Shown in pieces: positions 16,868 to 56,887 of a stretch of DNA of 64,000 bases. Origin of the DNA: a virus; the IMG/VR virus record IMGVR_UViG_3300031774_000001; one strand, given 5' to 3'. The notes under the pieces were generated by a model. That model did not search any database. It saw only the letters and a list, made by a program, of their open reading frames with translations, and had not been told where the DNA came from. The position numbers and the translations under genes were made by a program. Positions within the stretch are counted from its first letter, which is position 1; each line of letters starts with the position of its first letter.

Positions 16868-17541
16868 TAAATTTTGTATGTGTATATTATGGAACAAAGT
16901 ATTCACTAGATTATGTACAAGTGCTATACAATATGGTACAACGACATTTAACTATACCACATAAGTTTATATGTTTTTCAGACCACGTAAAACCTCAAAA
17001 GATATTAACAGGAGATATAGAGTTTAGAAAGTTTAAAGATTCACATTATGAAGGTTGGTGGAATAAAATGCAACTGTTTAGAGAAGAGTCAGACTTAAAA
17101 GGTCCTTGTTTATATATGGATTTAGATGTAGTGCTTTTAGATAACATTAATGATTTAGCGACATTTGGTGATGATATGACATTTGGTGTAATAAACGATT
17201 TTAACATATTGACAAAAGAGTATAATTCAAGTATAATGAAATTCAATAATGAAGTTGCAACAGATTTAGTATGGAAACCATTTCTACAACAAAAGACAGA
17301 ATTGATGAAATTGCAAGGTGACCAAAACGCAATGTCAAAATTAGTAAAAGGTAGTCAATACCTAAAAGTTATGCCAGACGAATGGTCATATTCCTACAAA
17401 TGGTTCAGCAGACAAGACCCTAGATTTGATAAGAGTAAATGGACGTTTGAAAAGAAAGATAAAGCTAAGGTTGCAGTATTTCACGGTAGACCTTTTCCTC
17501 ACGAATCTACACAGGAATGGGTTAAAAAAGAGTGGAATTAG
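16864..17541 (+). CDS. GT-A glycosyltransferase
   Basis: GTKY, GWWNK..LF, YMDLDVV, NSSIM, GDQ, VFHGRP.PH. Confidence 0.8.
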   Translation: MINFVCVYYGTKYSLDYVQVLYNMVQRHLTIPHKFICFSDHVKPQKILTGDIEFRKFKDSHYEGWWNKMQLFREESDLKGPCLYMDLDVVLLDNINDLATFGDDMTFGVINDFNILTKEYNSSIMKFNNEVATDLVWKPFLQQKTELMKLQGDQNAMSKLVKGSQYLKVMPDEWSYSYKWFSRQDPRFDKSKWTFEKKDKAKVAVFHGRPFPHESTQEWVKKEWN

Positions 17542-17624
17542 AACAAAACTAGAACAAATATCTCTAAAAACCGCATAAAATAGTGTTTTATTTACTTGAC
17601 TTTTGAGTAAAAAACCTGTATAGT
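17541..17624 (+). promoter_or_regulatory. GAAC-N7-GAAC box plus sigma70 promoter
   Basis: GAACAAAACTAGAAC 17541-17555; TTGACT 17596-17601, 17 bp, TATAGT 17619-17624. Confidence 0.85.
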
Positions 17625-17635
17625 ATACGTATACT

Positions 17636-18097
17636 ATGAAAAAAAACACTATGAACAAATCAAAAAAAGTTAAATTAAATAAAGTAGACTATACTTTCAA
17701 CGTATGTTATTTAAGAGAGTATATGGATCCCGAACACGAAGGTGATTTTTTCTACGCATACGAAACAATCTACAGAAACGTTCCATACAAATATAAAGAT
17801 AAATTCAATACAACAAAAATGAAGTTTAAAATTCTTAAACATTGTGATTGGAATTATAAAGAAAATGCTAAGAACTTTGCAAATTCAACTAGAATTGAAC
17901 TAATTGACCAAGACCAATACTATCAAACATATGAACAAGTATTTGGTGATGTTGCAGATAACGATAAACATATGTTTAATGATTACGGACAATCTTACGA
18001 TACAAGACAATCTTTCAGAAAAGATTTTAATCCTAAATTAACATATAAATTAAACCCAATAAAAGCAAAAATAGAAAAAGCGAAAGGACTACACTAA
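17636..18097 (+). CDS. Early hypothetical protein
   Basis: First ORF after a strong promoter. Confidence 0.75.
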   Translation: MKKNTMNKSKKVKLNKVDYTFNVCYLREYMDPEHEGDFFYAYETIYRNVPYKYKDKFNTTKMKFKILKHCDWNYKENAKNFANSTRIELIDQDQYYQTYEQVFGDVADNDKHMFNDYGQSYDTRQSFRKDFNPKLTYKLNPIKAKIEKAKGLH

Positions 18098-18282
18098 TGA
18101 GTAAAGTAAAACAATGGGCTACAGACGAAGCCGAAAAAGCAGTTGACAAAATATTGTCAGATGTTAAAAGTAATATAATGAGTATTGATATTGCTAGAAA
18201 TAAAATAATGCAAGTTAATAATGTTAACTTAACAGGAATTGATGAGTTTAATGTTGACGAAGTAATAGCGGAGAATATATAA
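18097..18282 (+). CDS. Hypothetical protein
   Basis: SD AAGGA, TAATG coupling. Confidence 0.7.
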   Translation: MSKVKQWATDEAEKAVDKILSDVKSNIMSIDIARNKIMQVNNVNLTGIDEFNVDEVIAENI

Positions 18283-18749
18283 TGAGTGATTTAACAGACG
18301 TATATGTAAATAAAGACGATATCGGTAAAAACCTATATAGAAAAAAAACATACTATACATTATGCATTGAGCAAGATGTATTAGCAAAAGATAAAGATGA
18401 AGCAGATAAATTGCTTTCAGATTGCGGAATAGACCACTCAAAAATCAATAGAGAATTAACAGAAGAAAAAAACGGTGTTGAAACTTATATGACAGACGCC
18501 AATTATACAGATTCAGATACAACCAAGTATATTGCAAAAGTTGTTTATGATGACTATGACGGTTTAGAAAACGCCAAAGAAAACGGTGATGTTGAGTTAG
18601 ACACATATGCTTTAGAAGATGATACAATTGATCCAGAAACAGGAGAGTGTATGAGTAAACCACTTGATGATTTACACGAAGCATTAAATCCAAATAACAA
18701 ATATGTTTTAAAAGACGGTGAAGTAAAAATCGTGAAAGAGAATCAATAA
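18282..18749 (+). CDS. Acidic hypothetical protein
   Basis: SD GGAG, TAATG coupling. Confidence 0.7.
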   Translation: MSDLTDVYVNKDDIGKNLYRKKTYYTLCIEQDVLAKDKDEADKLLSDCGIDHSKINRELTEEKNGVETYMTDANYTDSDTTKYIAKVVYDDYDGLENAKENGDVELDTYALEDDTIDPETGECMSKPLDDLHEALNPNNKYVLKDGEVKIVKENQ

Positions 18750-18925
18750 TGGATAGTACACATTTAATATTTTTAGGAATTATCGGAATGCTTTTAACTG
18801 TAATTGGATTTGGTATTGCTTTCTATATTGGAAGTAAATCAAATAAAGTAGAAGTAAAATTAACAGAAGTACAAAAATCATTAAGAGATTTAAATAGAAT
18901 AAATGGAAGGGATGATACTGAATAA
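18749..18925 (+). CDS. 58-aa single-TM protein
   Basis: MDSTHLIFLGIIGMLLTVIGFGIAFYIG...; TAATG coupled at both ends; not in the ORF track. Confidence 0.65.
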   Translation: MDSTHLIFLGIIGMLLTVIGFGIAFYIGSKSNKVEVKLTEVQKSLRDLNRINGRDDTE

Positions 18926-19191
18926 TGAAATACAACGAAGATAAAATATTAAAAGAAGTTTTAGACTATGTAAAAGGTACATATTCAAAACACTATTCTA
19001 CTACTAAAGAAGGATTCCAAGTACAAGATTTATTAAGACATTTAAAGATAGATAAAGATTTCAGTTTATCAAATGCAATTAAATACCTTTGTAGATACGG
19101 TAAAAAAGAAGGTAAAAATAAATTAGATTTATATAAAGCAATACACTATATTGTATTGTTAATTAATAGTGAAGAAAACAATGGCAAATAA
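18925..19191 (+). CDS. DUF3310-like phage protein
   Basis: HY, NAIKYLCRYGKK, DLYKAIHY. Confidence 0.85.
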   Translation: MKYNEDKILKEVLDYVKGTYSKHYSTTKEGFQVQDLLRHLKIDKDFSLSNAIKYLCRYGKKEGKNKLDLYKAIHYIVLLINSEENNGK

Positions 19192-19447
19192 AACAATATA
19201 CGTAGAACTAAAAAAGAAAACTGTACAATCAGCATATAATCAAGTAAAAATGTTGAGTGATTTAGATTTTCCTAATTTTCAAAAAGGAGAACCTTTACAC
19301 AATTTAGTTATGGAAATTAAAAGAGATATAAAAAAACAAATGAAACAACCACCTGCTTGGAAAGAATTTTTAGAATTCTGGCCTTTGAGTATAGTTATTC
19401 CAGGTATGTTAATATTAATATTAATGGCAAATGTATTTCAATGGTAA
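19181..19447 (+). CDS. Hypothetical protein with C-terminal TM helix
   Basis: FWPLSIVIPGMLILILMANVFQW. Confidence 0.65.
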   Translation: MANKTIYVELKKKTVQSAYNQVKMLSDLDFPNFQKGEPLHNLVMEIKRDIKKQMKQPPAWKEFLEFWPLSIVIPGMLILILMANVFQW

Positions 19448-19815
19448 GTAATAAAATAATATACAACAATATGAATTTCTATTATGACGTATATAATTTA
19501 GATGTATCTATTTACGGTAAAGAGTGGAAACCAGTTGAGTATTTAAGTGATTCAGAAAGAAGAGAGAAAGTAAAACAACATATATTAAAAAAAGACTTAA
19601 CACAAAGAATAGGAGGAAAAAAGTATATGGCATTATTAACAGAAAATCAAACAATCAACGGATTTGATAATACAGCAGATGTATTAATCTCTATTAAAGA
19701 GAACGTTGAGAATAATAATAAAGAAACAGCGATTGATATGCTAAATCAATTAATTGATAATGAGAAGACAGAATCAGATATTGATGTTGCATTAAATCTA
19801 CAAAATGATGAATAA
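19441..19815 (+). CDS. Hypothetical protein (internal AGGAGG start at 19627)
   Basis: ORF track; likely start ATG 19441. Confidence 0.55.
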   Translation: MVSNKIIYNNMNFYYDVYNLDVSIYGKEWKPVEYLSDSERREKVKQHILKKDLTQRIGGKKYMALLTENQTINGFDNTADVLISIKENVENNNKETAIDMLNQLIDNEKTESDIDVALNLQNDE

Positions 19816-19919
19816 TCCCGCTATAGCAGACTATCAAAGCAGTTGGAAAAGCTCGCCAGCGACCCTGCTAGGGGCTTGGAAATGCAAAAAAGTGAGTAAA
19901 ATAGGGGTTATTTTAAGGA

Positions 19920-19948
19920 TTGACATTTCCAGAGTTTTATGTTAGTAT
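19920..19948 (+). promoter_or_regulatory. sigma70 promoter
   Basis: TTGACA-17-TAGTAT with TG extension. Confidence 0.75.
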
Positions 19949-19976
19949 TAATACAATTGAGAAAGGAACATACATT

Positions 19977-20351
19977 ATGAGTAGTGTAATATACAATAAA
20001 GAGAACATCTATAAAGAGTTTGATGTAGCAAAACAAAAAGACATTGAACTATCAGATAAAAAAACACCAGAAGAAAAAGAGAACGATATCCATACAAACA
20101 GGTTACAGTTTTGTAAAGACCATAAAGAACTAAATGAGAAAGACCCAGGTTTATACGATTGTGATATTAAGTGGGACAGTTTAATAACTGCTTATTCTTC
20201 ACCAAATCCTAGAGACCATTTCTATAAAAGTGTGTTCGGTAGAACTTATGCAGAACAAATGGCCTTTGAAACTTCTGAATCAGAATCAGATGACGGAGGA
20301 GAAGATTCGTATTATAGAAGTAGAAGAAAGAACAGAAACTACAAAAGATAA
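19977..20351 (+). CDS. Hypothetical protein
   Basis: SD AAGGA, downstream of promoter. Confidence 0.7.
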   Translation: MSSVIYNKENIYKEFDVAKQKDIELSDKKTPEEKENDIHTNRLQFCKDHKELNEKDPGLYDCDIKWDSLITAYSSPNPRDHFYKSVFGRTYAEQMAFETSESESDDGGEDSYYRSRRKNRNYKR

Positions 20352-20352
20352 T

Positions 20353-20598
20353 ATGTCAAAACCTAAATTTAAAGAAATTTTTGACCCACAACAAACCGTT
20401 TGTGATGACTTTCACGAATGGGTGAGATTAGAAACTGAAAAAGTTTCTGATCCCATTATGGTACATATGACAATATTGGGTCAAACATTAAAAATTATGA
20501 AGTCAGTAATGCCTAGTGCAGATTATGATGGAATAATGGAAACGGTTTATCAATCAAAAGATAGAATTGAACCGTTTAAGAAAGTAACTACACATTAA
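20353..20598 (+). CDS. Hypothetical protein
   Basis: Packed ORF, start reassigned to ATG 20353. Confidence 0.65.
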   Translation: MSKPKFKEIFDPQQTVCDDFHEWVRLETEKVSDPIMVHMTILGQTLKIMKSVMPSADYDGIMETVYQSKDRIEPFKKVTTH

Positions 20599-20619
20599 TA
20601 TGAGAGGAGTGATTTAATT

Positions 20620-20850
20620 ATGAAAAAACTATTAATGATTGCTACAGTATTATTTACTACAAATGCTATAGCAGAAGATAAGAAGATAACACCACAAGAG
20701 TTTGGTACAGCACTTGCTGAAACGCCAGCTAAACTTGTTAATTTTATTAGTGGTGAAGTTGATAAAACAAAAGAGTATCAAAAGAAAACTTGGTCAGAAG
20801 CAAAAACAAAGTGGCCTTGGAAACATTTATTTAAAACGGATAGTGAATAA
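20620..20850 (+). CDS. Small secreted protein
   Basis: SD AGGAG, signal peptide MKKLLMIATVLFTTNAIA. Confidence 0.75.
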   Translation: MKKLLMIATVLFTTNAIAEDKKITPQEFGTALAETPAKLVNFISGEVDKTKEYQKKTWSEAKTKWPWKHLFKTDSE

Positions 20851-21056
20851 TGATTGGTGATTTTGTTTGTACTAGTGCTAATGATGGCACACATTTATTC
20901 AGACCTGTTTCTGCTAGAGCACAAACACTTTGGCAGGAAAAAGGTTTTAATAATTATGTAATTGATAATAATGAAGATTATTACATTGTAAAGAGTGTTA
21001 ATAGTCAGAAAATATGTGATGAAATACGCAAGAATAATATGGATTTTACTAGTTAG
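20850..21056 (+). CDS. Hypothetical protein
   Basis: TAATG coupling. Confidence 0.6.
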   Translation: MIGDFVCTSANDGTHLFRPVSARAQTLWQEKGFNNYVIDNNEDYYIVKSVNSQKICDEIRKNNMDFTS

Positions 21057-21507
21057 TTTAACACTAACTAATTGTGCTAACAGGTCTCATACAGGTGCCG
21101 TGTTAGGTGCAGGTACAGGAACAACTGTATGTTTAGAATACATATCAGATAATCCTTACTTAATTGCTACGTGTGCTGTAGGGGCTGCTTTTGCAGGTGC
21201 AGAAATTTTATACAATAGTGATAAAGATGTACATAACGCTGTATTCGTAGACCATTTAAATACAAGTGGATACGGTTCAAGTTATACTAATTGGTATAAT
21301 AAACAAACAGGTAATAATGGAATTATACACATAACAAGGTCTTATATGGTTGGACCTCTTAAATGTAAAGATTATGACCATACAGTAGATATAACAAGTC
21401 AATGGCCTTTAATTGGTGTTGGTAATGTTAATAGAAAAGTTGTATTTGGAACTGCTTGTCAGTTGCCAGACGGAAGATGGATTGAAAAACCTGAAGGAGT
21501 GAATTAA
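21019..21507 (+). CDS. Lipoprotein, 17-kDa surface antigen/glycine-zipper-like
   Basis: Lipobox LTNC, GAVLGAGTG zipper, WYN..TGN.G, CKDY, GTAC...DGRW. Confidence 0.75.
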   Translation: MKYARIIWILLVSLTLTNCANRSHTGAVLGAGTGTTVCLEYISDNPYLIATCAVGAAFAGAEILYNSDKDVHNAVFVDHLNTSGYGSSYTNWYNKQTGNNGIIHITRSYMVGPLKCKDYDHTVDITSQWPLIGVGNVNRKVVFGTACQLPDGRWIEKPEGVN

Positions 21508-21508
21508 T

Positions 21509-22009
21509 ATGGATCCCAAAAATTATAAAATTTATATGTATGCAACGTTAATTATGATAACAGTATTGTTATGTATGGAAATGGCTTGGGGTTGTGTAGA
21601 TTGTGATTTAAATAAGAAAGCTTTTGATAAAAAGGCTGAAGTAATGGAGATAGAGTGGCATAATCCAGATGGAACTATTCAACGTAGTACTAAAGTTGTA
21701 GATGGTTCTGAAAAAATATTATATGATAATGTAAAACCAGTAACTAAAAATGATACTGAACAATTTTGTTATGTTAAAGTTATTATTAAACAAGAAGCAA
21801 ATGGAAACATTTCTAAAGAAGAGAAATTATATTGTTCCGATGGAAGAAGTGGTGTAGATACACCTTCTTATTGGGAACTTTTTGCCCAGTTTTACTACCG
21901 TGATGTCTATACTCCAGAGTATTGCAGATATTATAGTCGTAAAAGTCACGCTTTTAAATCGTACGGAAAAGTGTGTTTAAATGAGTACGGAGAATGGAAG
22001 GTAAAATAA
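21509..22009 (+). CDS. Secreted Cys-containing protein
   Basis: Hydrophobic N-terminus, C-terminal GKVCL...GEW. Confidence 0.65.
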   Translation: MDPKNYKIYMYATLIMITVLLCMEMAWGCVDCDLNKKAFDKKAEVMEIEWHNPDGTIQRSTKVVDGSEKILYDNVKPVTKNDTEQFCYVKVIIKQEANGNISKEEKLYCSDGRSGVDTPSYWELFAQFYYRDVYTPEYCRYYSRKSHAFKSYGKVCLNEYGEWKVK

Positions 22010-22152
22010 TGATTAAAAATATAATCATACTTACTCTCCTATTGGTTATTGTATATGGAGTTACTGCTGAACAGTTTTTGGGCTATGCTCAATCCAGCGT
22101 TGACTTATTACAAGAACTGTTATATAATGTACAAAGGAGTGTGAAAAACTAA
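22009..22152 (+). CDS. 47-aa membrane peptide
   Basis: MIKNIIILTLLLVIVYG...; TAATG coupled at both ends. Confidence 0.55.
   Translation: MIKNIIILTLLLVIVYGVTAEQFLGYAQSSVDLLQELLYNVQRSVKN
22100..22128 (+). promoter_or_regulatory. sigma70 promoter
   Basis: TTGACT-17-TATAAT, followed by SD AAGGAG. Confidence 0.8.
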
Positions 22153-22775
22153 TGAACAAATACATTAAGATTTTATCAGTTGCTGTCTTTGGTCTGTTAT
22201 TGACTAATTGTGCAGGAAATTATAAAATCAAAAGTGAAAAAGGTAAAGTAGTTAATACTGTTCCAAAATGGTATATGGCTGATTTTTCTGAAACTAAAGC
22301 TTGTGATATAGCAAGATTTGGTAAAGGTAAAGAAAAGCAATGTATATTTGGAGTTGGTACTAGCGTTTCACCAGACTTGAATCTCGCAATTGAGAAAGCT
22401 AAAATGATAGCGAAAGCTGAATTAGCAGACATTATCAAAGGGGAGATGAATAAAGAGTCGAAACAATTTATTACTGAAATTGGTAAACATAACAGTAAGA
22501 ACGTTGTTAGTGAAGTAGAATCTGTATTGGTCAATATTATTAAAGATACACCAGTTAGAGGATATGAAATATTTGAGCAAGATGTAACCCTTACAAAAAA
22601 TGGTTATTATAGAGCTTGGATAGGCTTAAGATTGCCATTAGGTGAATATAATAAAATGTTCAACTATACAATTGCTGAAGCTACAGACGCTTATAACTTA
22701 AAGTATCACGCTAATAAGTCATTTGAGAAACTTATGAAAAAAGAAGAGGTTTCAGATGGACAAGTTAGTAATTAA
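22152..22775 (+). CDS. LPP20-like lipoprotein
   Basis: Lipobox LTNC, VPKWY, G.G.S.DL.LA..KA...AKAELA. Confidence 0.7.
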   Translation: MNKYIKILSVAVFGLLLTNCAGNYKIKSEKGKVVNTVPKWYMADFSETKACDIARFGKGKEKQCIFGVGTSVSPDLNLAIEKAKMIAKAELADIIKGEMNKESKQFITEIGKHNSKNVVSEVESVLVNIIKDTPVRGYEIFEQDVTLTKNGYYRAWIGLRLPLGEYNKMFNYTIAEATDAYNLKYHANKSFEKLMKKEEVSDGQVSN

Positions 22776-23046
22776 AGATATCACAGTATATACGAAACAA
22801 AATTGTGTATACTGTGTAAAGGCAAAGGCCTTGCTAAAAGGCCTTGGTCTAACTTATACGGAAAAAAGTTTAGAAACAGATTTTAATAATGATCCTACAA
22901 AGTTAATTGAAGACATTGGTAAAAAAGTAAGAGCAATGCCTCAAATTAAAATAGAAGGTGAACTAGTCGGCGGATATAATCAACTAATAGAATATTTTAA
23001 CAATAAAGGTTTAGTAAATTTTAAAGGTGAGATTACACGTGACTAA
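22756..23046 (+). CDS. Glutaredoxin
   Basis: VYTKQNCVYCVKAK, MPQI, VGGY. Confidence 0.92.
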   Translation: MDKLVIKDITVYTKQNCVYCVKAKALLKGLGLTYTEKSLETDFNNDPTKLIEDIGKKVRAMPQIKIEGELVGGYNQLIEYFNNKGLVNFKGEITRD

Positions 23047-23536
23047 TGATAAAGATAAAAAAGGAAAGATAATTATATTTCCTGAAAACAGAATTAAAAA
23101 GAAGATAACTCATCCACAGGAATCTCCATTTACAAAACGATTAAAAGAACAACAAACTAGAGAATTTGTTGAAGGTAGTGTAGATGAAATTGGATTTGAA
23201 TTATTAAGAAAATTTAGTGATATGGGATTAAGAACTAATAAAGAAACATTTACAAAAGACCTTGCGTTAGTTATTGATTGTATAAGAGGTTTAATCTATA
23301 GAGATTTTAATATGGCACACGCAGCTCAATTAATGGCAAATAAAATGGTATCAATCAAATTTAATAGAGGTGGTAAGGCAAGTGCCGCTAGAATAGACTA
23401 TAATGATTTTATGAAGAAACCAAAAAGACCAAATGTTTTTAATAAAGAATTTAAAGAAGAGTTAAACGATTTACAAGATGGATCAGATATGTTTGAATCT
23501 GATATGGATTTAAATGGAGATGATGATAAAAAATAG
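23039..23536 (+). CDS. Hypothetical protein
   Basis: GTG start with SD AAGGTG; KIIIFP N-terminal motif. Confidence 0.65.
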   Translation: MTNDKDKKGKIIIFPENRIKKKITHPQESPFTKRLKEQQTREFVEGSVDEIGFELLRKFSDMGLRTNKETFTKDLALVIDCIRGLIYRDFNMAHAAQLMANKMVSIKFNRGGKASAARIDYNDFMKKPKRPNVFNKEFKEELNDLQDGSDMFESDMDLNGDDDKK

Positions 23537-23672
23537 TTTAATGATATTAGTAATGCTTACTTTTGTAGGTTGTGCAAAAGAAAAACCTACACTCAATTCA
23601 ATGGAGAAATTTTTTGATTGTTTAGGGGATAGTAGTAAGTGTGAGAAATTGAAGAATTCCGTGGAGGAATAG
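23520..23672 (+). CDS. 50-aa putative lipoprotein
   Basis: Lipobox FVGC, two further Cys; not in the ORF track. Confidence 0.5.
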   Translation: MMIKNSLMILVMLTFVGCAKEKPTLNSMEKFFDCLGDSSKCEKLKNSVEE

Positions 23673-23718
23673 TCCTATGCAGACTTTAAAAAGCAAAAAT
23701 AAAGGAGGAAGAAACATT

Positions 23719-24012
23719 ATGTTTTTTTCAAAAAGTAAAGTTGCAACAGCAACTAAAGGCAGAAAAAGACTGTCTAAAACTCAAAAAGTAATAAACTTAT
23801 TTGAGAAAGGTGAACCAGTTTCTTGGAAAGTTTTAAGAAACAGATACGACCTTATATCACCAAGAGCGATGGTTGACAAACTACGTTCAAAAGGTCATAT
23901 GATTTATATTAATAAATCATCTTCAGGTACATCTTATAGATTGGGTACTCCTACAAAAGCTATTATAGCTGCTGGGATAACTAAACTATACGGTACTGAC
24001 TACGCATACTAA
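23719..24012 (+). CDS. Winged helix-turn-helix DNA-binding protein
   Basis: SD AAGGAGG; SPRAMVDKLRSKGHMIY...YRLG. Confidence 0.7.
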   Translation: MFFSKSKVATATKGRKRLSKTQKVINLFEKGEPVSWKVLRNRYDLISPRAMVDKLRSKGHMIYINKSSSGTSYRLGTPTKAIIAAGITKLYGTDYAY

Positions 24013-24081
24013 TGCGTTAATTGAATCGTAACCAATACGATTGACACAGGCGACCATATATGTATAAAATTCGCCTGTGTC
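24002..24081. repeat. Three tandem inverted repeats (last one an 11-bp perfect stem)
   Basis: ACGCAT/ATGCGT, AATCGTA/TACGATT, GACACAGGCGA/TCGCCTGTGTC. Confidence 0.75.
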
Positions 24082-24096
24082 TTAATAAAAGGAATT

Positions 24097-24432
24097 ATGA
24101 AAGAAGAAAAATTTATAAAATTAAACGATAAAATAAAAGCATTAAATTCAACAAGAGTATTTAAAAAGATTACACCTAAAGGTGATTTATCTTGGTATAT
24201 AAAATGGGTAGCAAGTTTAATGTTAATGATTGCAGTTTGCTTTAGAGCAGCTGACTTTAATCATATGTTTGATTTGTATTTTAGTTTTATGGGAACAACT
24301 GGTTGGTTAGTAGTAGGATTTTTATGGCACGATAGAGCATTAATATTCTTAAATGCTGTATTATCAACAGTATTATTAATAGGTATATTAAAAGAATTAA
24401 CAACTTGTTCCACTTGTATGATACCATTATAA
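24097..24432 (+). CDS. Small multi-TM membrane protein
   Basis: WYIKWVAS, GWLVVGFLWHDRALIFLN. Confidence 0.75.
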   Translation: MKEEKFIKLNDKIKALNSTRVFKKITPKGDLSWYIKWVASLMLMIAVCFRAADFNHMFDLYFSFMGTTGWLVVGFLWHDRALIFLNAVLSTVLLIGILKELTTCSTCMIPL

Positions 24433-24433
24433 T

Positions 24434-25318
24434 ATGAAAACAACTGATTTAACTCCAGTAGAAATTCACAATAAAATATATTATAAAAGGGATGATTATT
24501 ATGCTCCCTATGGTAGAGATAATGTTAATGGTGGTAAGACAAGACAGGCAATTTGTTTGTTTGAAGAAGTAAAAGATGATATTGTAAAAAACCACAATGG
24601 TGGTGTAATAACAGGTTCATCTGTACATAGTCCACAAGCACCAATTATAGCTGCCGTTGCTCAAGACTTTGGTTTTAAATGTATTATAGGTGTAGGTGGT
24701 ACAAAACCTAATACAATAGATAATCACCATATGATAAGATTATCAAGACACTATGGTGCTGATATTGAAAACGTTGCAGGTCACGGTATGACTTCAGCGA
24801 TAGACGCTAATATTAAAAGAAAATTAATATCTAAAAATGGTTATATGTTAATCAAGTTTGGTAATAGTGCTGCTACGAATCCAGAATCAATATTTGATAG
24901 TGTTGCTAATCAAGTTAAAAACATACCTGATAAGTTAGACAATATAGTAATTGCAGTAGGTAGTGGTATACAGTTTGCAGGTATAGTAAAAGGTATAGAG
25001 AAGTTTAAGAAAAAGGTAAAAAGAATTATAGGGGTCACCTTTGTTGACCGTAGTAAAAAGATTAATGAGTATTTAAATCAATTTAGTAATCTTGAATCAG
25101 GATTTAAGAAGTATCAAGATTATGAAATGTACAAAACAACTTTACCATACGCAAAACCAGTATGGGAAGATGTGGGTAATGGCTTTATTGACGATATATA
25201 CGAAGGTAAAGCACATAAATGGATGAGAGAGAATATAGATACTACAAAAGAAAAGACGCTATTTTGGAGTATAGGGAGAAGATTAACAGCGGAACAGGTA
25301 GATAAGTTATATAAATAG
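24434..25318 (+). CDS. PLP-dependent fold-II enzyme (ACC deaminase/D-cysteine desulfhydrase-like)
   Basis: TPVE, KRDD, GGKTR (PLP Lys), VIAVGSG. Confidence 0.8.
   Translation: MKTTDLTPVEIHNKIYYKRDDYYAPYGRDNVNGGKTRQAICLFEEVKDDIVKNHNGGVITGSSVHSPQAPIIAAVAQDFGFKCIIGVGGTKPNTIDNHHMIRLSRHYGADIENVAGHGMTSAIDANIKRKLISKNGYMLIKFGNSAATNPESIFDSVANQVKNIPDKLDNIVIAVGSGIQFAGIVKGIEKFKKKVKRIIGVTFVDRSKKINEYLNQFSNLESGFKKYQDYEMYKTTLPYAKPVWEDVGNGFIDDIYEGKAHKWMRENIDTTKEKTLFWSIGRRLTAEQVDKLYK
25310..25317 (+). promoter_or_regulatory. T4-type late promoter
   Basis: TATAAATA at gene boundary. Confidence 0.7.
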
Positions 25319-25352
25319 ATATAATGATTAATATTAAAAATTGGAGTATAAA

Positions 25353-25877
25353 ATGGCAGAAGAACCAAAACAACATCCATCATTAATGAGTAAGTCTTCT
25401 ATGCAAGCAATGTCAGCTACGGCTGGTTCAGGTGACTTGTTATTTTCAGAAGTCTTAACTAAAGTAAATAACGCAAAAGATAAAGCTAAAAAGATAGAGG
25501 TCTTAAAAAGATACGACCATCCATCTTTAAGAATGCTTTTAAAAGGATCGTTTGATCCTAGCATTGAGTGGGAATTACCAGAAGGTACACCACCTTTTAT
25601 GGAAAATCCAGCACCGAAAGGTACTGAGCATACAATCCTTAAAACTGAAGCAAAACGTTTGTGGCATTTTATTAAAGGCGCAGATACTAAAACTACAAAA
25701 ACTCAAAAAGAAACTTTGTTTATCCAAATGTTAGAAGGATTACATAGTGATGAAGCAAGACTCTTGCTTAATGTAAAAGATAAAACTTTACATAGAGCAT
25801 ATAAAGGGTTAAGTGATTCTGTAGTAAAAGAATCTTTCGGATGGAACGAATTGTATCAAAAATTAGAACAAAAATAG
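25353..25877 (+). CDS. Conserved T4-like phage protein
   Basis: FDPSIEWELPEG.PP, FIQMLEGLH..EA.LL; late promoter. Confidence 0.75.
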   Translation: MAEEPKQHPSLMSKSSMQAMSATAGSGDLLFSEVLTKVNNAKDKAKKIEVLKRYDHPSLRMLLKGSFDPSIEWELPEGTPPFMENPAPKGTEHTILKTEAKRLWHFIKGADTKTTKTQKETLFIQMLEGLHSDEARLLLNVKDKTLHRAYKGLSDSVVKESFGWNELYQKLEQK

Positions 25878-25950
25878 AACACTTTGTTAAAAAACCCTTA
25901 TAAAACAAGGGTTATTTGTGCTTGACTTTCCTTGTGGATTTGTGTATAAT
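25866..25950 (+). promoter_or_regulatory. GAAC-N7-GAAC box plus sigma70 promoter
   Basis: GAACAAAAATAGAAC 25866-25880; TTGACT 25922-25927, 17 bp, TATAAT 25945-25950. Confidence 0.85.
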
Positions 25951-25990
25951 AAACACATATAAACAATAAATATTAGGAGAGAAATATATT

Positions 25991-26320
25991 ATGAAAAAAG
26001 TGATGTTTATTATATTATTGAATTTAGCCCTATGGTTTGGATTAACAAGTCTATCCAATGTAGCTAATGCAAATGATTATAACAAAGCAGTTATTGGCCA
26101 CGTTATCAAATCAAGTATTGATAAAACCAATGTAGATACAACTGCTTTAATGGAGCAAGAACTACATAGGTTAGTATACGTTATGATAAATGAGTTTAGT
26201 GGCGTATTACAATCACACCTACCAAATATACTAGAAGGTCTTGCTAGTGAAATCAGACAACAAAATGATAAAGAGTTTAAATGTGCTCTTTTAAAAGGTA
26301 GTAACTATGAGTGTAATTGA
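25991..26320 (+). CDS. Secreted hypothetical protein
   Basis: SD AGGAG, signal peptide ending ANA. Confidence 0.75.
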   Translation: MKKVMFIILLNLALWFGLTSLSNVANANDYNKAVIGHVIKSSIDKTNVDTTALMEQELHRLVYVMINEFSGVLQSHLPNILEGLASEIRQQNDKEFKCALLKGSNYECN

Positions 26321-26501
26321 AAACATAGTTAATACCTTGAACTGGATATATCAATATGTTCCTAAAGAACTATTGATTATAATTTTATCAAGTTTAGTAA
26401 TGTTTATTTTTTTAGAAATAGGAGATAGAAAAAGGAAAAAGCAATGGCTAAAAGAGTTAGAACCAAAACCAGTAAAAGGCAGAAAGTCAAAAAAAGACTA
26501 A
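26307..26501 (+). CDS. Single-TM protein
   Basis: Hydrophobic segment plus basic tail. Confidence 0.6.
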   Translation: MSVIENIVNTLNWIYQYVPKELLIIILSSLVMFIFLEIGDRKRKKQWLKELEPKPVKGRKSKKD

Positions 26502-26881
26502 AGATGGAATTGGCCGAAGTGAAAACTCGTAAGTATAAAACTACATTTAAAGATATTAAAAAGTATTTTAAACTTATTAATAAACACGTATTTGATGGTA
26601 AACTATCTCCGTTTAATGATATTAAAATTAAACAAATAAAGGATAGAGAATATCCTAGAGTGTGGGGTCAAGTTGTTATTAATGACCAAGAAAGAAAAGG
26701 AACTAGAAACTACGTATTAGAAATGATACCTAGTTATAAGAATAAAAAAGAATTTGTGGACACATTAGGACACGAAATGATACACCTGTTTCAAATGAGT
26801 AATTTAGGGGATACAGGAAATCATAATGATATGTTTTATAGCTTTAGACCTAAACTGAATGCTATAGGATTAGATATATAA
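26444..26881 (+). CDS. SprT-like zinc metalloprotease
   Basis: N..VFDGKL, TLGHEMIH, H...F. Confidence 0.8.
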   Translation: MAKRVRTKTSKRQKVKKRLKMELAEVKTRKYKTTFKDIKKYFKLINKHVFDGKLSPFNDIKIKQIKDREYPRVWGQVVINDQERKGTRNYVLEMIPSYKNKKEFVDTLGHEMIHLFQMSNLGDTGNHNDMFYSFRPKLNAIGLDI

Positions 26882-26898
26882 TAAAAAAAGGATATATT

Positions 26899-27180
26899 AT
26901 GGGTGAGGTGAGAAAGACAAAAGAACTAGACCACTATTTAAAGAGAATAATCTTAAAAGTTCCAGACAAAATTCAACAGTTTATAGATAATGCAGACGGT
27001 GAATTCTCTATGACTTATTATACTGGAGATTGGTCAAAAGACATATATGATAACTTTACTGAATTACAAGCAGAAAAGATATTTAAAAGTATGGCTAAAT
27101 TTCAAAACAAAATAAGTTTTGTTCAAAAGAAAAATCAACCATCAATCGGTGGTTATGAGTACAAAGTAGCGAGGTTTTAA
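26899..27180 (+). CDS. Hypothetical protein
   Basis: SD AAGGA. Confidence 0.65.
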   Translation: MGEVRKTKELDHYLKRIILKVPDKIQQFIDNADGEFSMTYYTGDWSKDIYDNFTELQAEKIFKSMAKFQNKISFVQKKNQPSIGGYEYKVARF

Positions 27181-27872
27181 TGAAACTGAAACCAAGTACA
27201 TCTAATTTTTTCAAAAAAGCATATTGGTGGTTTAAAGCAACATTATTAGTTGTTGCAATATCAACTATAACATATGGTATAGGAACATTTACACCTAATC
27301 CTATTGCAGTTAAACAAGCAACAGAAGAAGTTAGAATAGAACACGCTGAATGGGCAGAAAAATTAGGATTAAATGAACCTAGTTTTGAATATACAAACTC
27401 AAAAGAATTTATAATAGAACTTAACAAGTGTGTTGATTTTTTAAATTATCATACACCACCAAGTAAAAGAGTACCTATTCAAATGGTGACAGCACAAGCC
27501 GCTTTAGAGAGTGCTTGGGGTAAGAGTAGATTTGCTGTAGAAGCAAATAACTTATTTGGTATTAGAGTATTTAAAAGTACTAAAAAACATTTATTACCAC
27601 AAGGTGTTGATAAGTGGCCAGGTTGGGGTGTTAGAGTATTTGAAACAAAATGTAATAGTGTAAAAGAATACATAAGATTATTAAATGAACACCCAGCATA
27701 TAAAGAATTTAGAGAGTTAAGAGCAAAATTATTACAAGACGGTGAATTACTAGACGCAAAAGCATTAGTAAAAACTTTAGATAAGTTTTCTACTACAGAA
27801 GATTATGACCAAAGAGTTATTAATATAATGGGTAAAGTAGAAAAAGTATTAAACGATATTAAAGAGGAATAA
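27180..27872 (+). CDS. Glucosaminidase (GH73/Bax-like) with N-terminal TM anchor
   Basis: AQAALESAWGKSRFA.EANNLFGI, LN.HPAY..FR. Confidence 0.88.
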   Translation: MKLKPSTSNFFKKAYWWFKATLLVVAISTITYGIGTFTPNPIAVKQATEEVRIEHAEWAEKLGLNEPSFEYTNSKEFIIELNKCVDFLNYHTPPSKRVPIQMVTAQAALESAWGKSRFAVEANNLFGIRVFKSTKKHLLPQGVDKWPGWGVRVFETKCNSVKEYIRLLNEHPAYKEFRELRAKLLQDGELLDAKALVKTLDKFSTTEDYDQRVINIMGKVEKVLNDIKEE

Positions 27873-28927
27873 TGAGAAATTTGTTTTTCATTTTAGTAGT
27901 ACTGTTAAGTGCCATATCTATATCAGGTATAGCAGCTGCATATAGTATTATAGGACTAGCAACTCTTTTTGCTGGTGCGAAGATAGCAATTATTGCTATG
28001 GGTACTTCATTAGAAGTTGGTAAGTTAGTTGCCGCCAGTTGGTTATATCATAACTGGAAGAATCCAAATCTACCACAATCAATAAAAGGATATTTAACAA
28101 CGTCTGTTATTGTATTAGTATTTGTAACTAGTATGGGTATCTTTGGTTTTCTATCAAAGGCACACCTAGACCAAGTAAGACCTACGAGTGATAATAATGT
28201 ACAGATACAATTAATAGATAGACAGATTATACAAGAAAACGTTGTTATAGATAGAGCAGAAAATACATTAAACTTATTAGATAAAGCATTAGAGGTATAT
28301 ATAGATAAGGAATATGTTAGTAGAGGACTAAAAGAACGTAAGAAACAAAAAGAAGAAAGAGATTTTTTAAATAATGAAATAAGAGTTGCAATGGATAAGA
28401 TTGCAAAATTGACATTAGATAAAGGTAATATAGAACTAGAACAATTAAAGATAGAAGCAGATGTAGGTCCACTTAAATATGTTGCAGAATTAATATATGG
28501 TGATGAAGCAAAAGAACATTTTGATAAAGCAGTTAGATGGATTATCATTGTATTAATATTTGTATTTGATCCATTAGCAGTATTATTATTGATTGCCGCT
28601 AATATATCATTAAGAGAAAGAAAATTAGCAAATGAAGCGAAAAGTAAGAAAAAAGAAAAAGAAGTCAATTGGCAAAGGGAAGCGACTAGAGCGAAAACTA
28701 TATCGCAAGGTCTCCGAGATAAGCAAAAGTTTTACAAAACATTTTTTGCAAAACTAGGTAAGAGAGATTTAAAGAATAGAGATTATGAAGAGTTTTTTAA
28801 GAGTATGGGTACAGAAGAGTTAATGAAACTAGGTTTGGATCCAGATGAAATACGAATCAAACTAGACCAGATAATGGAATGGAATGAAAAACCAAAAAAC
28901 TATTTAGAGCCAGGAGTTAAGAAATGA
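27872..28927 (+). CDS. Membrane protein with coiled coil
   Basis: 3 N-terminal TMs (SIIGLATLF, LEVGKLV, SMGIFGFLSKAH), VGPLKY, VFDPLAV TM. Confidence 0.8.
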   Translation: MRNLFFILVVLLSAISISGIAAAYSIIGLATLFAGAKIAIIAMGTSLEVGKLVAASWLYHNWKNPNLPQSIKGYLTTSVIVLVFVTSMGIFGFLSKAHLDQVRPTSDNNVQIQLIDRQIIQENVVIDRAENTLNLLDKALEVYIDKEYVSRGLKERKKQKEERDFLNNEIRVAMDKIAKLTLDKGNIELEQLKIEADVGPLKYVAELIYGDEAKEHFDKAVRWIIIVLIFVFDPLAVLLLIAANISLRERKLANEAKSKKKEKEVNWQREATRAKTISQGLRDKQKFYKTFFAKLGKRDLKNRDYEEFFKSMGTEELMKLGLDPDEIRIKLDQIMEWNEKPKNYLEPGVKK

Positions 28928-33141: not shown

Positions 33142-33144
33142 TGA

Positions 33145-33396: not shown

Positions 33397-33424
33397 TTAC
33401 ATTTACTAGAAAATATGTTATAGT
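33396..33424 (+). promoter_or_regulatory. sigma70 promoter for gp33
   Basis: TTTACA-17-TATAGT, ATG 6 nt downstream. Confidence 0.65.
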
Positions 33425-33430
33425 AACACA

Positions 33431-49997: not shown

Positions 49998-50137
49998 TAA
50001 AAGGGGATATTATGAGAACTACTGAAAGAATCTTTGAGAATCGCAAAATTTTTGGGTTTGCTAACGCTAGACGTGTATGGCAACCATTACAACTGGCCGT
50101 AGTAGAGATTAAGACAGGTTAAACACAGAAACAATGA

Positions 50138-50199
50138 GAACAATTAGAGAACAACTATCAGAATTGCCTATTGACACCGTGAGCGGAATAGTGTATAAC
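50138..50199 (+). promoter_or_regulatory. GAAC-N7-GAAC box plus sigma70 promoter
   Basis: GAACAATTAGAGAAC 50138-50152; TTGACA 50171-50176, 17 bp, TATAAC 50194-50199. Confidence 0.75.
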
Positions 50200-50467
50200 G
50201 TAGATGAACTACACACACCACAGCTAGGTCGCCAGTTATACTATGGTAGTCAACCTTACAGTATTCACGAGCAATTTAATGTTGTTCTACAAGGCATATT
50301 AGGTATTTTACCTCTTACGCAAGTGGTCGCAAAGGGTACGCAAACGAGGCTGCGTAAAGATATTATTACACGCAGTCCTCACACGAACCTGCGTAAAGGT
50401 ATTCTAAATAGTATTAAAATGCGTAAGTCGTGTTCTTTAAAAGAAAAACAATATGGGAAAAAATTAA

Positions 50468-51538
50468 ATGACTGACAATAATTTTTTAGGGTTTAATAAC
50501 TTTATCTGGTTTACTGGCGTTGTTGAAGATAGAATGGATCCATTTGCAGTAGGCCGAGTGCGAGTGCGTTGCGTAGGCATACACACACACGACAAAGAAG
50601 TTTTGCCTACTACAGACTTACCTTGGGCGCAAGTTATAATGCCTGTTACAAGTCCTGCGATAAGTGGACTAGGTCAGTCGCCGAGTTTTCTTGTAGAAGG
50701 CAGTTGGGTCTTTGGATATTTTAGAGATGGCGCAAACTGTCAAGAGCCTTGCGTAATAGGTTCACTCCCAGGTATGCCAGCAGAAAAGCCAGACGGCACT
50801 TTAGGATTTTCTGACCCTAACGCAAAATATCCTATTACAAAAAATGAATCAGATGTAAATAGACTTGCCTATAGTGGTTTCACGCAGTTAGGCCTGGTCG
50901 CTAGACAAGATAGTGTTAAGACAGGTATTGCAACGGCCGACTTCAATGCGACTACAAACGCAAGAGGTGGTGAGATAACAGCAAGTGATGGAGATATTTG
51001 GAATCAACCTGCGCCGGCCTGGGCCGCTGTTTATCCTTTCAATCACGTCTTTGAAAGTGAGAGTGGACATACAACAGAATTTGATGATACAGAAGGCGCC
51101 GAAAGAATTGCCCAATTTCATAGAACAGGCACAGGTTATGAAATAGACGCCGTGGGTAATATTAATATATCAAATGTTTCTAACAAATATGAAATTACAA
51201 ACGGTCACTCACGTTACGCCATTACAGGCGATAGTGACATTACAGTAGATGGTCGCCATAAGATATTCATTAACAAAACAGGCCAGGCCAACAATCACTA
51301 TGACATACAGATTGGCCCGAATGCAAACATTAACATACAAGTAGATAAAGGCAATATCAATCTGGTCACCGTTGATGGAGATGTAAATATGAATGTTGGT
51401 GGTAATTACAATCTAAAAGTAAAAGGTGATTACTATAGTGATATATGGGGCAGTAAGAACGAAACAATACAAGGCAGTAAAATATCAAATACAACTATGA
51501 GCGTATTTCATAGAGGCTCTTCAATTGATTTAAACTAA
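50468..51538 (+). CDS. 5: Baseplate central spike gp5 (OB-fold plus beta-helix, no lysozyme domain)
   Basis: WF.GVVEDR.DP...GRVRVR, LPWA, VFG.F.DG...Q.P..IG, YP.NHV.ESESGH..EFDDT. Confidence 0.9.
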   Translation: MTDNNFLGFNNFIWFTGVVEDRMDPFAVGRVRVRCVGIHTHDKEVLPTTDLPWAQVIMPVTSPAISGLGQSPSFLVEGSWVFGYFRDGANCQEPCVIGSLPGMPAEKPDGTLGFSDPNAKYPITKNESDVNRLAYSGFTQLGLVARQDSVKTGIATADFNATTNARGGEITASDGDIWNQPAPAWAAVYPFNHVFESESGHTTEFDDTEGAERIAQFHRTGTGYEIDAVGNINISNVSNKYEITNGHSRYAITGDSDITVDGRHKIFINKTGQANNHYDIQIGPNANINIQVDKGNINLVTVDGDVNMNVGGNYNLKVKGDYYSDIWGSKNETIQGSKISNTTMSVFHRGSSIDLN

Positions 51539-52652: not shown

Positions 52653-52674
52653 AGTAAAAACGGAGAATTAAATT

Positions 52675-53924: not shown

Positions 53925-53932
53925 GGAGTAAA

Positions 53933-55095: not shown

Positions 55096-55946
55096 GGTTA
55101 ATACAACCTATATTTGCTAGTTATTCTACAAGAGATACTGGATTAGGTGAAGACAATAAAATCTTTAATGCGTGGAAAGAAATTAATGAACGTGTTAAGA
55201 AAGATATTGATTTAGGAGTAAAAGAATTTCTTTTATTCTATGTTCCTGAATTTAAGTTAGGTGAAAAATCTGATACACATAGAGGTGATGAACATATTGA
55301 TTCACATAAGTTTGACCAAGTATGTGTAACTGCCGCTAGTCTTTCAAGAGATATACAACCACATTGTAGATTAATTGTAGATGTTTGTTTATGTTCTTAT
55401 ACACAGGACGGACATTGTTGTATAATAGGCGACCAAGAAAAAACAGATAAATTATTATTAGACCAAGCAAAATCAATTTATACAGCGTCTGGTGCTACAA
55501 TAGCGCCAAGTGATTGTCAAGACAATACAGTTAAAAATATTAAATCAGTAAAAGATGGTAATATAGATGTTATGAGTTATAGTACCAAATTTCGTTCAAC
55601 ATTTTATAGAAGTTGGCGAAATGCAATGAAAATATCAAAAGGTATTCATAGACCTTATCAATTAGATGTATCAGATAAAGCAGGTGCAATTAATCGTTCT
55701 ATAAAATATTCAAAAGATGGTGCAGATGAATTAATGTTAAAACCAGGTATTACTAGTTTAGATTTAATTCAAGGCATAAAGAAAGCAACTGGCAAACCTG
55801 TTGGTGTATATCAAACATCAGGAGAATGGTTAGGTATAGGTGCTCCTGGTAGTTTAGAAGAAACATATCATATATTCAAAAGAGCAGGTGCAGACTATAT
55901 GATAACTTATGGGGCAAGACGTTTAGCAAGACATCATAGACAGTAA
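55092..55946 (+). CDS. hemB: Porphobilinogen synthase (ALA dehydratase), shortened and divergent
   Basis: DVCLCSYT.DGHC Zn motif, APSD, MSYSTKF, YQLD, GAD.LMLKP, YQTSGE, KRAGAD..ITY. Confidence 0.9.
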   Translation: MRLIQPIFASYSTRDTGLGEDNKIFNAWKEINERVKKDIDLGVKEFLLFYVPEFKLGEKSDTHRGDEHIDSHKFDQVCVTAASLSRDIQPHCRLIVDVCLCSYTQDGHCCIIGDQEKTDKLLLDQAKSIYTASGATIAPSDCQDNTVKNIKSVKDGNIDVMSYSTKFRSTFYRSWRNAMKISKGIHRPYQLDVSDKAGAINRSIKYSKDGADELMLKPGITSLDLIQGIKKATGKPVGVYQTSGEWLGIGAPGSLEETYHIFKRAGADYMITYGARRLARHHRQ

Positions 55947-55966
55947 TACTCATAAATAGTAGTATT

Positions 55967-56563
55967 ATGAGTAAACACTACCAAACGGTAGAGGACCTAG
56001 ATATTAATTTAGAGGAGCTAATAGCGTGTTATGAACAGTTTAAAGAATCAAAAGGTTTTTCTACAGACAATCCTGATAATATAGACTTCAATGCTATATG
56101 TATCAACCGTAAACCTGGAGACCCCAAATCAATCTCTGGTGGTAATATCCGTGGAATCTATTGGACCTATCCTGACAATACAGGTAAAGAAGAACAAAGA
56201 CTTGAAGAAGTCAACGAAGAAGAATACACTCAAATTTGTCCAGAATTTAAAAACACGTATATTGAAACTCTTTACGATTATTTAACATTAAGATTTAAGT
56301 TAGGTCGTGTTCGTTTTCTAATGAAACCACCTAGAAGTTGTTTAAGTTGGCACCGTGATCCCGAAAAGAGATTACATATCCCAATGATAACAAATGGTGG
56401 TAGTAGAATGGTTATTGAAGATGAGAGTTTTCATATGCCAGCCAATGGAAATGCTTATATTACTGATAATACGAAATATCACAACTTTTTTAATGGTGGT
56501 GAGACTCAAAGAGTTCACCTAGTTGCAACTTTATTAGATTCTAGTGATTCAACTACTGATTAG
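55967..56563 (+). CDS. Asp/Asn beta-hydroxylase-like 2OG-Fe(II) oxygenase
   Basis: GRVR, WHRD..RLHIP..TN, YH...N.G...RVHLV; CATAAATA promoter at 55951. Confidence 0.8.
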   Translation: MSKHYQTVEDLDINLEELIACYEQFKESKGFSTDNPDNIDFNAICINRKPGDPKSISGGNIRGIYWTYPDNTGKEEQRLEEVNEEEYTQICPEFKNTYIETLYDYLTLRFKLGRVRFLMKPPRSCLSWHRDPEKRLHIPMITNGGSRMVIEDESFHMPANGNAYITDNTKYHNFFNGGETQRVHLVATLLDSSDSTTD

Positions 56564-56766
56564 TCTTGTTCAGAATACAACGTTTGCGAGTATAGAGCTA
56601 AAATAAACATAGCAATTCCTAACAATGACAAAGTACCACACAAAAACCAATTATCGTTCATAGGAATTCCTTTATAACCACCGTCAATTGCACCGACAGC
56701 GCCGATTAGACAGAAAGTTCCTCCTATTGATAGAATAATAGTTAAATATTCAAGTATTTTTTTCAT
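56560..56766 (-). CDS. 68-aa two-TM membrane protein
   Basis: SD AAGGA, own strong promoter, two hydrophobic helices. Confidence 0.8.
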   Translation of the reverse strand: MKKILEYLTIILSIGGTFCLIGAVGAIDGGYKGIPMNDNWFLCGTLSLLGIAMFILALYSQTLYSEQD

Positions 56767-56795
56767 AATGTTTCCTTTTTTCAACTTATACGTTA

Positions 56796-56887
56796 ACTAT
56801 ATACTAAAAATAGAAAAAAGTCAAGGGAAAAATTCAAAAAAATGAGAAAAATTAAGGTTTTTTTAGTTGTTTGTTCGCTTTTTGTTC
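56796..56887 (-). promoter_or_regulatory. GAAC-N7-GAAC box plus sigma70 promoter (minus strand)
   Basis: GTTCGCTTTTTGTTC 56873-56887; TTGACT 56824-56819, 17 bp, TATAGT 56801-56796. Confidence 0.85.

Follow-up and report, generated by a model that had tools for sequence, protein, structure and literature searches.

SAR11 bacteria outnumber every other bacterial lineage of the surface ocean, where ultraviolet (UV) damage follows a daily cycle. The 64,000-nucleotide (nt) stretch of viral DNA analyzed here in full (IMG/VR virus record IMGVR_UViG_3300031774_000001; hereafter, the window) raises the question of whether a lytic, T4-like phage of these bacteria reads the DNA-damage (SOS) state of its host, since it carries four direct repeats of the form GAAC-N7-GAAC, each lying upstream of a sigma70-type promoter. 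The same repeat, equivalently written GTTC-N7-GTTC, is the operator (SOS box) of the regulator LexA in Alphaproteobacteria (PMC8565304). A preliminary description of the window had proposed on this basis that a subset of phage promoters is linked to host LexA, an interpretation that withstood every refutation test named there that could be run computationally. The four repeats are probably sites for host LexA that have been kept by selection in pelagimyophages, where they would tune a small number of viral operons.

The boxes are found at 17541-17555, 25866-25880 and 50138-50152 on the plus strand and at 56873-56887 on the minus strand, where they had first been noticed, and each is co-oriented with a promoter of the form TTGAC(T/A)-17-TATA(G/A)(T/C). 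Listed with the features that accompany them, and with distances counted from the end of the box to the -35 hexamer, they are:

17540 to 17556, plus strand: box 1, AGAACAAAACTAGAACA, overlapping the TAG stop codon of the glycosyltransferase gene at 16864-17541
17596 to 17624, plus strand: promoter 1, TTGACT-17-TATAGT, 40 nt 3' of box 1, with 10 of 12 consensus matches
25865 to 25881, plus strand: box 2, AGAACAAAAATAGAACA, overlapping the last codons and stop of the DUF6433 gene at 25341-25877
25893 to 25913, plus strand: hairpin resembling an intrinsic terminator, between box 2 and promoter 2, with a 7-pair stem and a T-rich tail
25922 to 25950, plus strand: promoter 2, TTGACT-17-TATAAT, 41 nt 3' of box 2, with 11 of 12 consensus matches
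50137 to 50153, plus strand: box 3, AGAACAATTAGAGAACA, in a conserved non-coding region 5' of gp5
50171 to 50199, plus strand: promoter 3, TTGACA-17-TATAAC, 18 nt 3' of box 3, with an imperfect -10
56872 to 56888, minus strand: box 4, AGAACAAAAAGCGAACA, upstream of a lone antisense gene
56796 to 56824, minus strand: promoter 4, TTGACT-17-TATAGT, 48 nt 3' of box 4, with 10 of 12 consensus matches
56560 to 56766, minus strand: gene for a 68-amino-acid hydrophobic protein, conserved (78 related loci) and the sole gene behind promoter 4

Both the number and the placement of the repeats set them apart. GAAC-N7-GAAC occurs eight times in the window against 1.28 expected, a count that none of 100 shuffled sequences reached, and the extended form AGAACA-N6-GAACA, which all four promoter-linked boxes share, occurs four times against 0.04 expected and at most once in any of the 100 shuffles; alternative spacings (N3-N6 and N8-N11) yield zero to three matches each, such that N7 stands out. 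By these counts, the motif is not equally frequent in coding DNA, as it would have been under one of the refuting conditions set out in the preliminary description. The remaining four copies in the window lie within coding sequence, with neither a promoter nor the flanking A residues. As had been described, the promoters at 19920, 22100, 29297, 31814, 34504 and 37684 have no perfect box within 100 nt upstream, and the same holds for further strong sigma70-like promoters at 24041 and 52624; among these box-free promoters, one-mismatch boxes occur only beside 22200 and 34504. Boxes 1 and 2 overlap the stop codon of their upstream gene in different reading frames, indicating that the repeat is a nucleic-acid element and not a by-product of coding. 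Because a generic sigma70 scan of this AT-rich DNA returns promoter-like sites no more often than in shuffled sequence, the promoter calls rest on near-consensus matches and on conservation; promoter 3 was missed by the consensus scan because its -10 element, TATAAC, lacks the conserved final T. Inspection by eye gave no convincing case for two other arrangements, an antisense promoter that overlaps the boxes or a promoter with TAGAAC as its -10 element.

The window most likely belongs to a pelagimyophage-type, T4-like phage with a SAR11 host. At a G+C content of 30-32%, it encodes NrdA/NrdB, a sugar-nucleotide cluster, ThyX, gp59, gp32, baseplate genes and gp5, and both the window and its relatives are T4-type by gene content (gp5, gp32, gp59, NrdAB and baseplate genes). 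The sole nucleotide match of the window in the phage collection is a baseplate segment of Pelagibacter phage Mosig, and a nucleotide search of that collection with site 1 returned no match; by protein, the closest cultured phages are Mosig, the OM43 phage Melnitz and Pelagibacter phage HTVC008M (the DUF6433 protein, for example, is 57% identical to that of Melnitz and 54.5% identical to that of Mosig). Mosig and HTVC008M were isolated on Pelagibacter HTCC1062. The host assignment is based on the similarity to these two phages together with the following RNA gene, which fits a SAR11 host:

33095 to 33437, plus strand: permuted transfer-messenger RNA (tmRNA) of alphaproteobacterial type (ARAGORN; Rfam RF01849 and RF04321), with the tag peptide ANESLALAA

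Melnitz and Mosig have likewise been reported to carry tmRNAs (PMC9004378). No temperate-type lysogeny module under LexA control was found in the window, no integrase-specific search having been made.

Do hosts of this kind possess LexA, and is the phage repeat its operator? With the curated cut-off of TIGR00498, lexA is present in five of five Pelagibacter genomes reached through a 16S probe and in 57 of 61 Pelagibacteraceae genomes, as a link to host LexA presupposes, and recA was found in 4/4 genomes. Exactly one GAAC-N7-GAAC, typically aGAACTTTTATAGAACa, lies about 40 nt 5' of lexA at every one of 35 Pelagibacteraceae loci. A SAR11 umuD-like gene is preceded by aGAACAAAACAAGAACATG, which differs by one base from box 1 of the window and is identical to the site-1 box of Mosig, of HTVC008M and of G001, a complete, terminally redundant relative of 177 kb, while recA is preceded by a conserved variant, GAACAAAATGTGTAC, in all four genomes. 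Judged by sequence, these boxes are the classical autoregulated SOS core and match the published alphaproteobacterial motif. The agreement between phage and host extends to positions for which no selection was made, namely an A at -1 (96% in phage versus 98% in host boxes) and an A at +16 (93% versus 80%), and to an A/T-rich spacer ending in A that formed no part of the search pattern; the host boxes are also co-oriented with lexA, umuD and recA, as all four phage boxes are with their promoters. Stress, and likewise infection by a pelagiphage, induces lexA, recA and umuDC (mucA) together in HTCC1062 (PMC2864753, PMC12753301). A 1.4-Mb host genome contains only four copies of GAAC-N7-GAACA, two of them at lexA and umuD, and the density of boxes in the phage window is some 20 times that of the host genome. 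Pelagibacter HIMB4 has a further perfect box, GAACATTTATAGAACA (G006:37879-37894, locus L241), in a divergent intergenic region 5' of a gene beginning MSEQLKIDPYGF, which may be an additional member of the small SAR11 SOS regulon.

Relatives of the phage were retrieved by means of flanking proteins only, and among them the boxes proved to be positionally conserved at all four sites. At site 1, the box is present, as GAACAAAAC[ACGT]AGAAC, in every distinct locus down to 57% flanking-protein identity, with diverging flanks; only the sixth spacer position varies within it, and all four bases occur there. The site-2 box is retained in 19 of 20 distinct loci at identities of at least 77%, in several IMG/VR relatives at about 60% and in Mosig, a more distant group having only a hairpin at this place. 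Relatives whose translated surroundings are only 42-65% identical still agree nucleotide for nucleotide in the box and promoter of site 3. Of 53 distinct regions upstream of the orthologous gene, 25 have a box at site 4, and a reading of these sequences shows that nearly every copy of the gene with its own promoter has a box and that copies without one mostly lie directly behind another gene. Overall, the box-anchored 29-nt flanks are 32-47% identical, near background for their composition, as compared with 67-87% for the 7-nt spacer. G001 contains 15 copies of GAAC-N7-GAAC, and exactly four of these are followed by a promoter, corresponding to the orthologues of sites 1-4.

Selective retention of this kind bears on whether the box might instead have been passed down as part of an intergenic cassette, mobile or duplicated and composed of repeat, A-run or terminator hairpin and early promoter, with no regulatory role of its own or with a role only as a recombination substrate. 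Sites 1, 2 and 4 do share a layout (box, about 8 nt, AAAAACC, hairpin or T-runs, TTGACT-17-TATA), site 2 has a terminator hairpin, and promoters exist both with and without boxes. Yet the box survives replacement of the remaining cassette by unrelated sequence, and it is the box, not the spacer, that matches the host operators; site 3 lacks the cassette layout, the distances between box and promoter are quantized at 10.3 base pairs (bp), and Melnitz has early promoters without boxes (PMC9004378). A hairpin is called at site 2 only, sites 1 and 4 having A/T runs with no called stem and site 3 having neither, and hairpins occur in several box-promoter spacers of relatives. As a rival account, the cassette is very unlikely; as an origin it is compatible with regulation, since a cassette can carry a functional operator.

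The occurrence of the boxes across phages follows the host. Promoter-linked intergenic boxes number four in HTVC008M and three in Mosig. In Melnitz, which infects OM43, belongs to the same family (PMC9004378) and stands no further from the window phage than Mosig does, GAAC-N7-GAAC occurs seven times as compared with 12 times for a control pattern, always in coding sequence and never linked to a promoter, and the cyanophage S-PM2 has no promoter-linked boxes either. No LexA homologue was detected at E ≤ 1 in G001, Mosig, HTVC008M or Melnitz, and no S24-type homologue in G001. This distribution, with boxes in SAR11 phages, none at promoters of Melnitz or S-PM2, and no LexA homologue, matches the site of a host factor and argues against a phage-encoded regulator; the earlier suggestion that the phage might supply a regulator of the same specificity is accordingly unlikely, given the four phages without a LexA homologue. 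As a potential host-switched counterpart in Melnitz, we considered the E. coli-type box CTGT-N8-ACAG, which occurs six times against about two for a control, always in long open reading frames and without a promoter, and which looks like chance. Among pelagipodoviruses, HTVC010P and HTVC019P contain no GAAC-N7-GAAC; HTVC011P has two copies on the reverse strand near its left end (3347-3361, locus L473, and 4251-4265, locus L474).

How the boxes might act is indicated by their spacing from the promoters. Eighty-six distinct box-to-(-35) spacers from the window and its relatives were collapsed to 25 spacer families, which are unrelated in sequence and include hairpins and A/T runs. Distances from the box end to the -35 hexamer cluster at 18, 39-42, 46-52, 59-62, 69-70 and 80-81 nt, and outside these classes there are only one HTVC008M site and some promoter calls that are evidently false. 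The best period over the 25 families is 10.3 bp, with R = 0.67 and a Rayleigh p of ~1e-5 that is somewhat optimistic because the site-3 orthologues count as four families and are not fully independent; R falls to 0.23 at 9 bp and to 0.02 at 12 bp. If transcription starts 7 nt after the -10 hexamer, the box centers fall near -61, -83/-84 and -91 in the window and near -93, -103, -113 and -124 in relatives, which places them on one helical face and at positions familiar from class I activators. Overlap with the core promoter of the sort that occlusion entails is absent, as the boxes end 18-48 nt 5' of the -35 hexamer in the window and up to 81 nt in relatives. The preliminary description had cautioned that boxes upstream of the -35 do not suit simple occlusion, a point that the 10.3-bp phasing sharpens: the phasing ties the function of the box to the downstream promoter, and so makes it less likely that its main role is that of an RNA-level 3'-end signal, a pure LexA sponge or a roadblock.

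The sponge and the roadblock belong to an account in which the boxes act mainly on the host, either because multiplying phage sites titrate the small LexA pool of a tiny SAR11 cell and thereby derepress host recA, umuDC and other SOS genes, or because bound LexA blocks read-through. Titration would draw on the very small number of host operators and the four boxes per phage genome, and host SOS genes do rise during infection by another pelagiphage (PMC12753301); a roadblock would suit boxes 1 and 2, whose position coincides exactly with the 3' end of the upstream gene and precedes a hairpin. A sponge, however, needs neither co-orientation with promoters nor helical phasing, and sites 3 and 4 do not lie at the 3' end of a co-oriented gene. 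We consider this account quite unlikely as the main function of the boxes, and note that an effect on the host could accompany promoter control as a side effect.

On another account, the repeat would serve a different regulator that prefers direct repeats with an 11-bp period, whether a host protein of the OmpR/PhoB type or an unrecognized phage activator, acting from class I-type sites at a subset of early or middle promoters and having nothing to do with SOS. Upstream, helically phased sites are typical of OmpR/PhoB-type activators. Searches for middle promoters in pelagimyophages and Melnitz were also unsuccessful (PMC7029224, PMC9004378), so that some unknown control system is to be expected in these phages. 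Against this, the phage motif equals the site found at all 35 host lexA loci and at umuD, including flanking bases that were not selected for, and a second protein with this preference would be a coincidence. A phage-encoded factor should, moreover, have persisted in Melnitz, which is box-free, and the four phages searched encode no LexA-like protein (a factor with an unrelated DNA-binding fold being still conceivable). A different direct-repeat regulator is therefore unlikely.

Taken together, motif identity, enrichment, conservation, host specificity and phasing lead us to infer that LexA binds these sites with regulatory consequences. Under this proposal, Pelagibacteraceae LexA would recognize (A)GAAC-N7-GAAC(A), of which one site would be placed on a fixed face of the helix 5' of each of the four sigma70 promoters. 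The canonical mechanism, in which LexA covers the -35 and -10 elements, does not fit the phage sites; intact LexA would instead modulate the promoters through a contact that depends on the face of the helix, the candidate partners being RNA polymerase (probably the C-terminal domain of its alpha subunit), upstream A/T-rich DNA resembling an UP element, or a bend or loop. Cleavage of LexA, following UV or other DNA damage or an SOS response triggered by the infection itself, would then change the output of four operons, namely an early cluster of genes without assigned function, a SprT/endolysin-like operon, the gp5 leader and the gene for the small membrane protein. The near-consensus promoters 1, 2 and 4 fit modulation or repression, whereas the defective -10 (TATAAC) of promoter 3 and its box at -61 fit activation, and we lean slightly toward positive control or fine-tuning over repression.

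A bolder version of this proposal is that a lytic T4-type phage uses intact host LexA as a positive, face-dependent co-factor whose self-cleavage would serve as both a clock and a damage sensor that switches operons, partly replacing the early-to-middle switch in a lineage with neither MotA/AsiA nor recognizable middle promoters; cleavage could follow when sunlight damages the host, or when the infection itself degrades host DNA. We hold this version only tentatively, as possible and no better than that. The ideas of a "UV sensor" and a "dormancy-to-lysis switch," both put forward in the preliminary description, are speculation.

Several observations weigh against LexA control of these promoters, or limit it. 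A close lineage in IMG/VR (L013/L017, 85% protein identity) has kept promoter 2 with a box that has decayed to GAGA-N7-GATA, and the box is thus not essential. One HTVC008M site, 10 nt from the -35, falls outside the phase series, and box 4 of the window lies about 1.5-2 nt off the ideal phase. Host operators are situated tens of bases or less from the gene start, apparently close to the promoter (on our own reading of the sequences, they would overlap the core promoter), whereas the phage boxes lie 18-81 nt 5' of the -35. Because promoters 1, 2 and 4 are near consensus (10-11 of 12 positions), they have no obvious need of an activator. Two of the three pelagipodoviruses are box-free, which makes the boxes a trait of myophages and not a general strategy of SAR11 phages. 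Lastly, all that the metatranscriptome contigs establish is the presence of near-identical sequence in RNA libraries. Part of 17001-27000 is contained in 20 metatranscriptome runs, four of which, as contigs only, were compared with the window; one RNA contig spans box, terminator and promoter 1 (17316-18188) and another ends at 17549, and since contigs show neither starts, ends nor strand, they give no verdict on transcription units.

The genes behind the four promoters are diverse, and none is a recognizable DNA-repair gene. The promoter 1 operon (17636-19815) consists of seven small genes, of which the only one with a family match is that at 18925-19191 (DUF3310). Directly 5' of box 1, the plus-strand segment 9317-17541 encodes a DegT-type aminotransferase, a GDP-mannose 4,6-dehydratase and a glycosyltransferase, and a gene of the GMP reductase/IMPDH family lies at 14495-15556 within this sugar-nucleotide modification cluster. 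Downstream, a contig from an RNA-seq library (run X1) links 19447 to 24148 through 38 other letters, which indicates a natural variant that replaces 4.7 kb of the early region and, with it, a flexible island. In the promoter 2 operon (25991-29319), the gene for a small protein, membrane-bound or secreted, is accompanied by genes for a SprT-like protein and for a glucosaminidase resembling an endolysin (Pfam SprT-like and Glucosaminidase; PHROG endolysin).

Promoter 3 would transcribe a leader of about 260 nt (50206-50467) followed by gp5 (50468-51538), the latter identified by Pfam Gp5_OB and the PHROG baseplate hub. Box 3 lies within a formal open reading frame of 113 codons (50134-50475); substitutions among relatives are spread evenly over the codon positions (27/30/29, for example), indicating that this region is non-coding. 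The gp5 leader is conserved and relatively G+C-rich and contains two exact copies of TGCGTAAAG (at 50351 and 50390), a sequence showing no enrichment across the window, as well as half-palindromes of the CTTACGCAAG type. An Rfam search of the region before gp5 returned nothing near threshold, and RNAalifold gives a weak consensus fold for the leader (-11.8 kcal/mol, few compensatory pairs).

At site 4, the gene for the 68-amino-acid hydrophobic protein is antisense to its neighbors, and the protein has no family match. A motif resembling TTGATTTT(A/T)C is present here at 56840-56850 on the minus strand and at many other loci (L030, L038, L336 and L389, for example), 25-35 nt 5' of the -35 element of early promoters. 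It lies between the LexA-type box and the promoter, occurs as well in distant relatives that have no box, and may be an UP-like element or the site of a second factor.

Should host LexA indeed act at these sites, they would constitute the first defined regulatory circuit in pelagimyophages, which are among the common viruses of SAR11, with four conserved promoters wired to the DNA-damage regulator of the host; a virulent T4-type phage would be reading the host SOS state, a use of LexA so far documented in temperate elements. The boxes may, in addition, exemplify LexA action from positions that are helically phased and lie far upstream. Three cultured phage-host pairs are at hand, Mosig and HTVC008M on HTCC1062 and Melnitz on OM43, the last of them a natural negative control, and the L013/L017 lineage offers a useful comparison as a natural loss-of-box variant.

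Comparison with known systems sets the phage boxes in context. The Pelagibacteraceae SOS boxes of lexA, umuD and recA have the same direct repeat, spacing, flanking A residues and A/T-rich spacer; they differ in lying near the gene start, apparently promoter-proximal, where they suit repression by occlusion, whereas the phage copies are phased and stand 18-81 nt 5' of the -35. Promoter-early stem-loop (PeSL) cassettes, reportedly described in T4-type phages by Arbiol et al. in 2010, may resemble the phage sites in combining an intergenic stem-loop with an early sigma70 promoter beside small early genes; PeSLs, however, are described as recombination modules with no host-regulator site, whereas here a LexA-type repeat is conserved and outlives the hairpin. 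We know of no description of LexA activating from -61 to -124. Tapias et al. (2002, as cited in PMC6182141) reportedly found that LexA is a dual activator and repressor at recA of Rhodobacter sphaeroides. Positive regulation has also been described for M. tuberculosis LexA (PMC3381160). Such precedents for activation by LexA, an alphaproteobacterial one among them, concern host genes, whereas the phage sites occupy positions -61 to -124.

Closer in theme are mobile elements that employ host regulators. LexA controls temperate elements such as GIL01 (through dinBoxes at P1 and P3), CTX-phi and coliphage 186 (PMC4551915, PMC6182141; review cited in PMC9437464). In those elements, as in the phage studied here, host LexA sites stand at phage promoters and host damage is read out by the phage. 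In the temperate elements, LexA keeps the change from lysogeny to lysis in check at operators inside the promoter, in some cases together with a phage co-factor (gp7) or with gp6, a LexA-like activator; the present phage, by contrast, is strictly lytic and T4-type, with four dispersed upstream sites, no lysogeny module in the window and no LexA homologue in the relatives searched. Conserved sites for a global regulator of the host are also found in promoter regions of virulent phages, where they couple infection to host physiology, as in the co-option of CtrA boxes by phages of Alphaproteobacteria and the Spo0A sites of phi29 (PMC9437464). Those sites convey a cell-cycle or sporulation signal, clustered TTAA-N7-TTAA repeats being used in the case of CtrA, in contrast to the single boxes and the DNA-damage signal proposed here. 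The pelagimyophage and Melnitz papers make no mention of LexA or of this motif, and no published description of it was found in the literature. The co-option of host LexA and other global regulators by phages is thus a known theme (PMC9437464, PMC4551915, PMC6182141); what is new is its virulent, T4-type setting and the use of single, far-upstream and helically phased sites.

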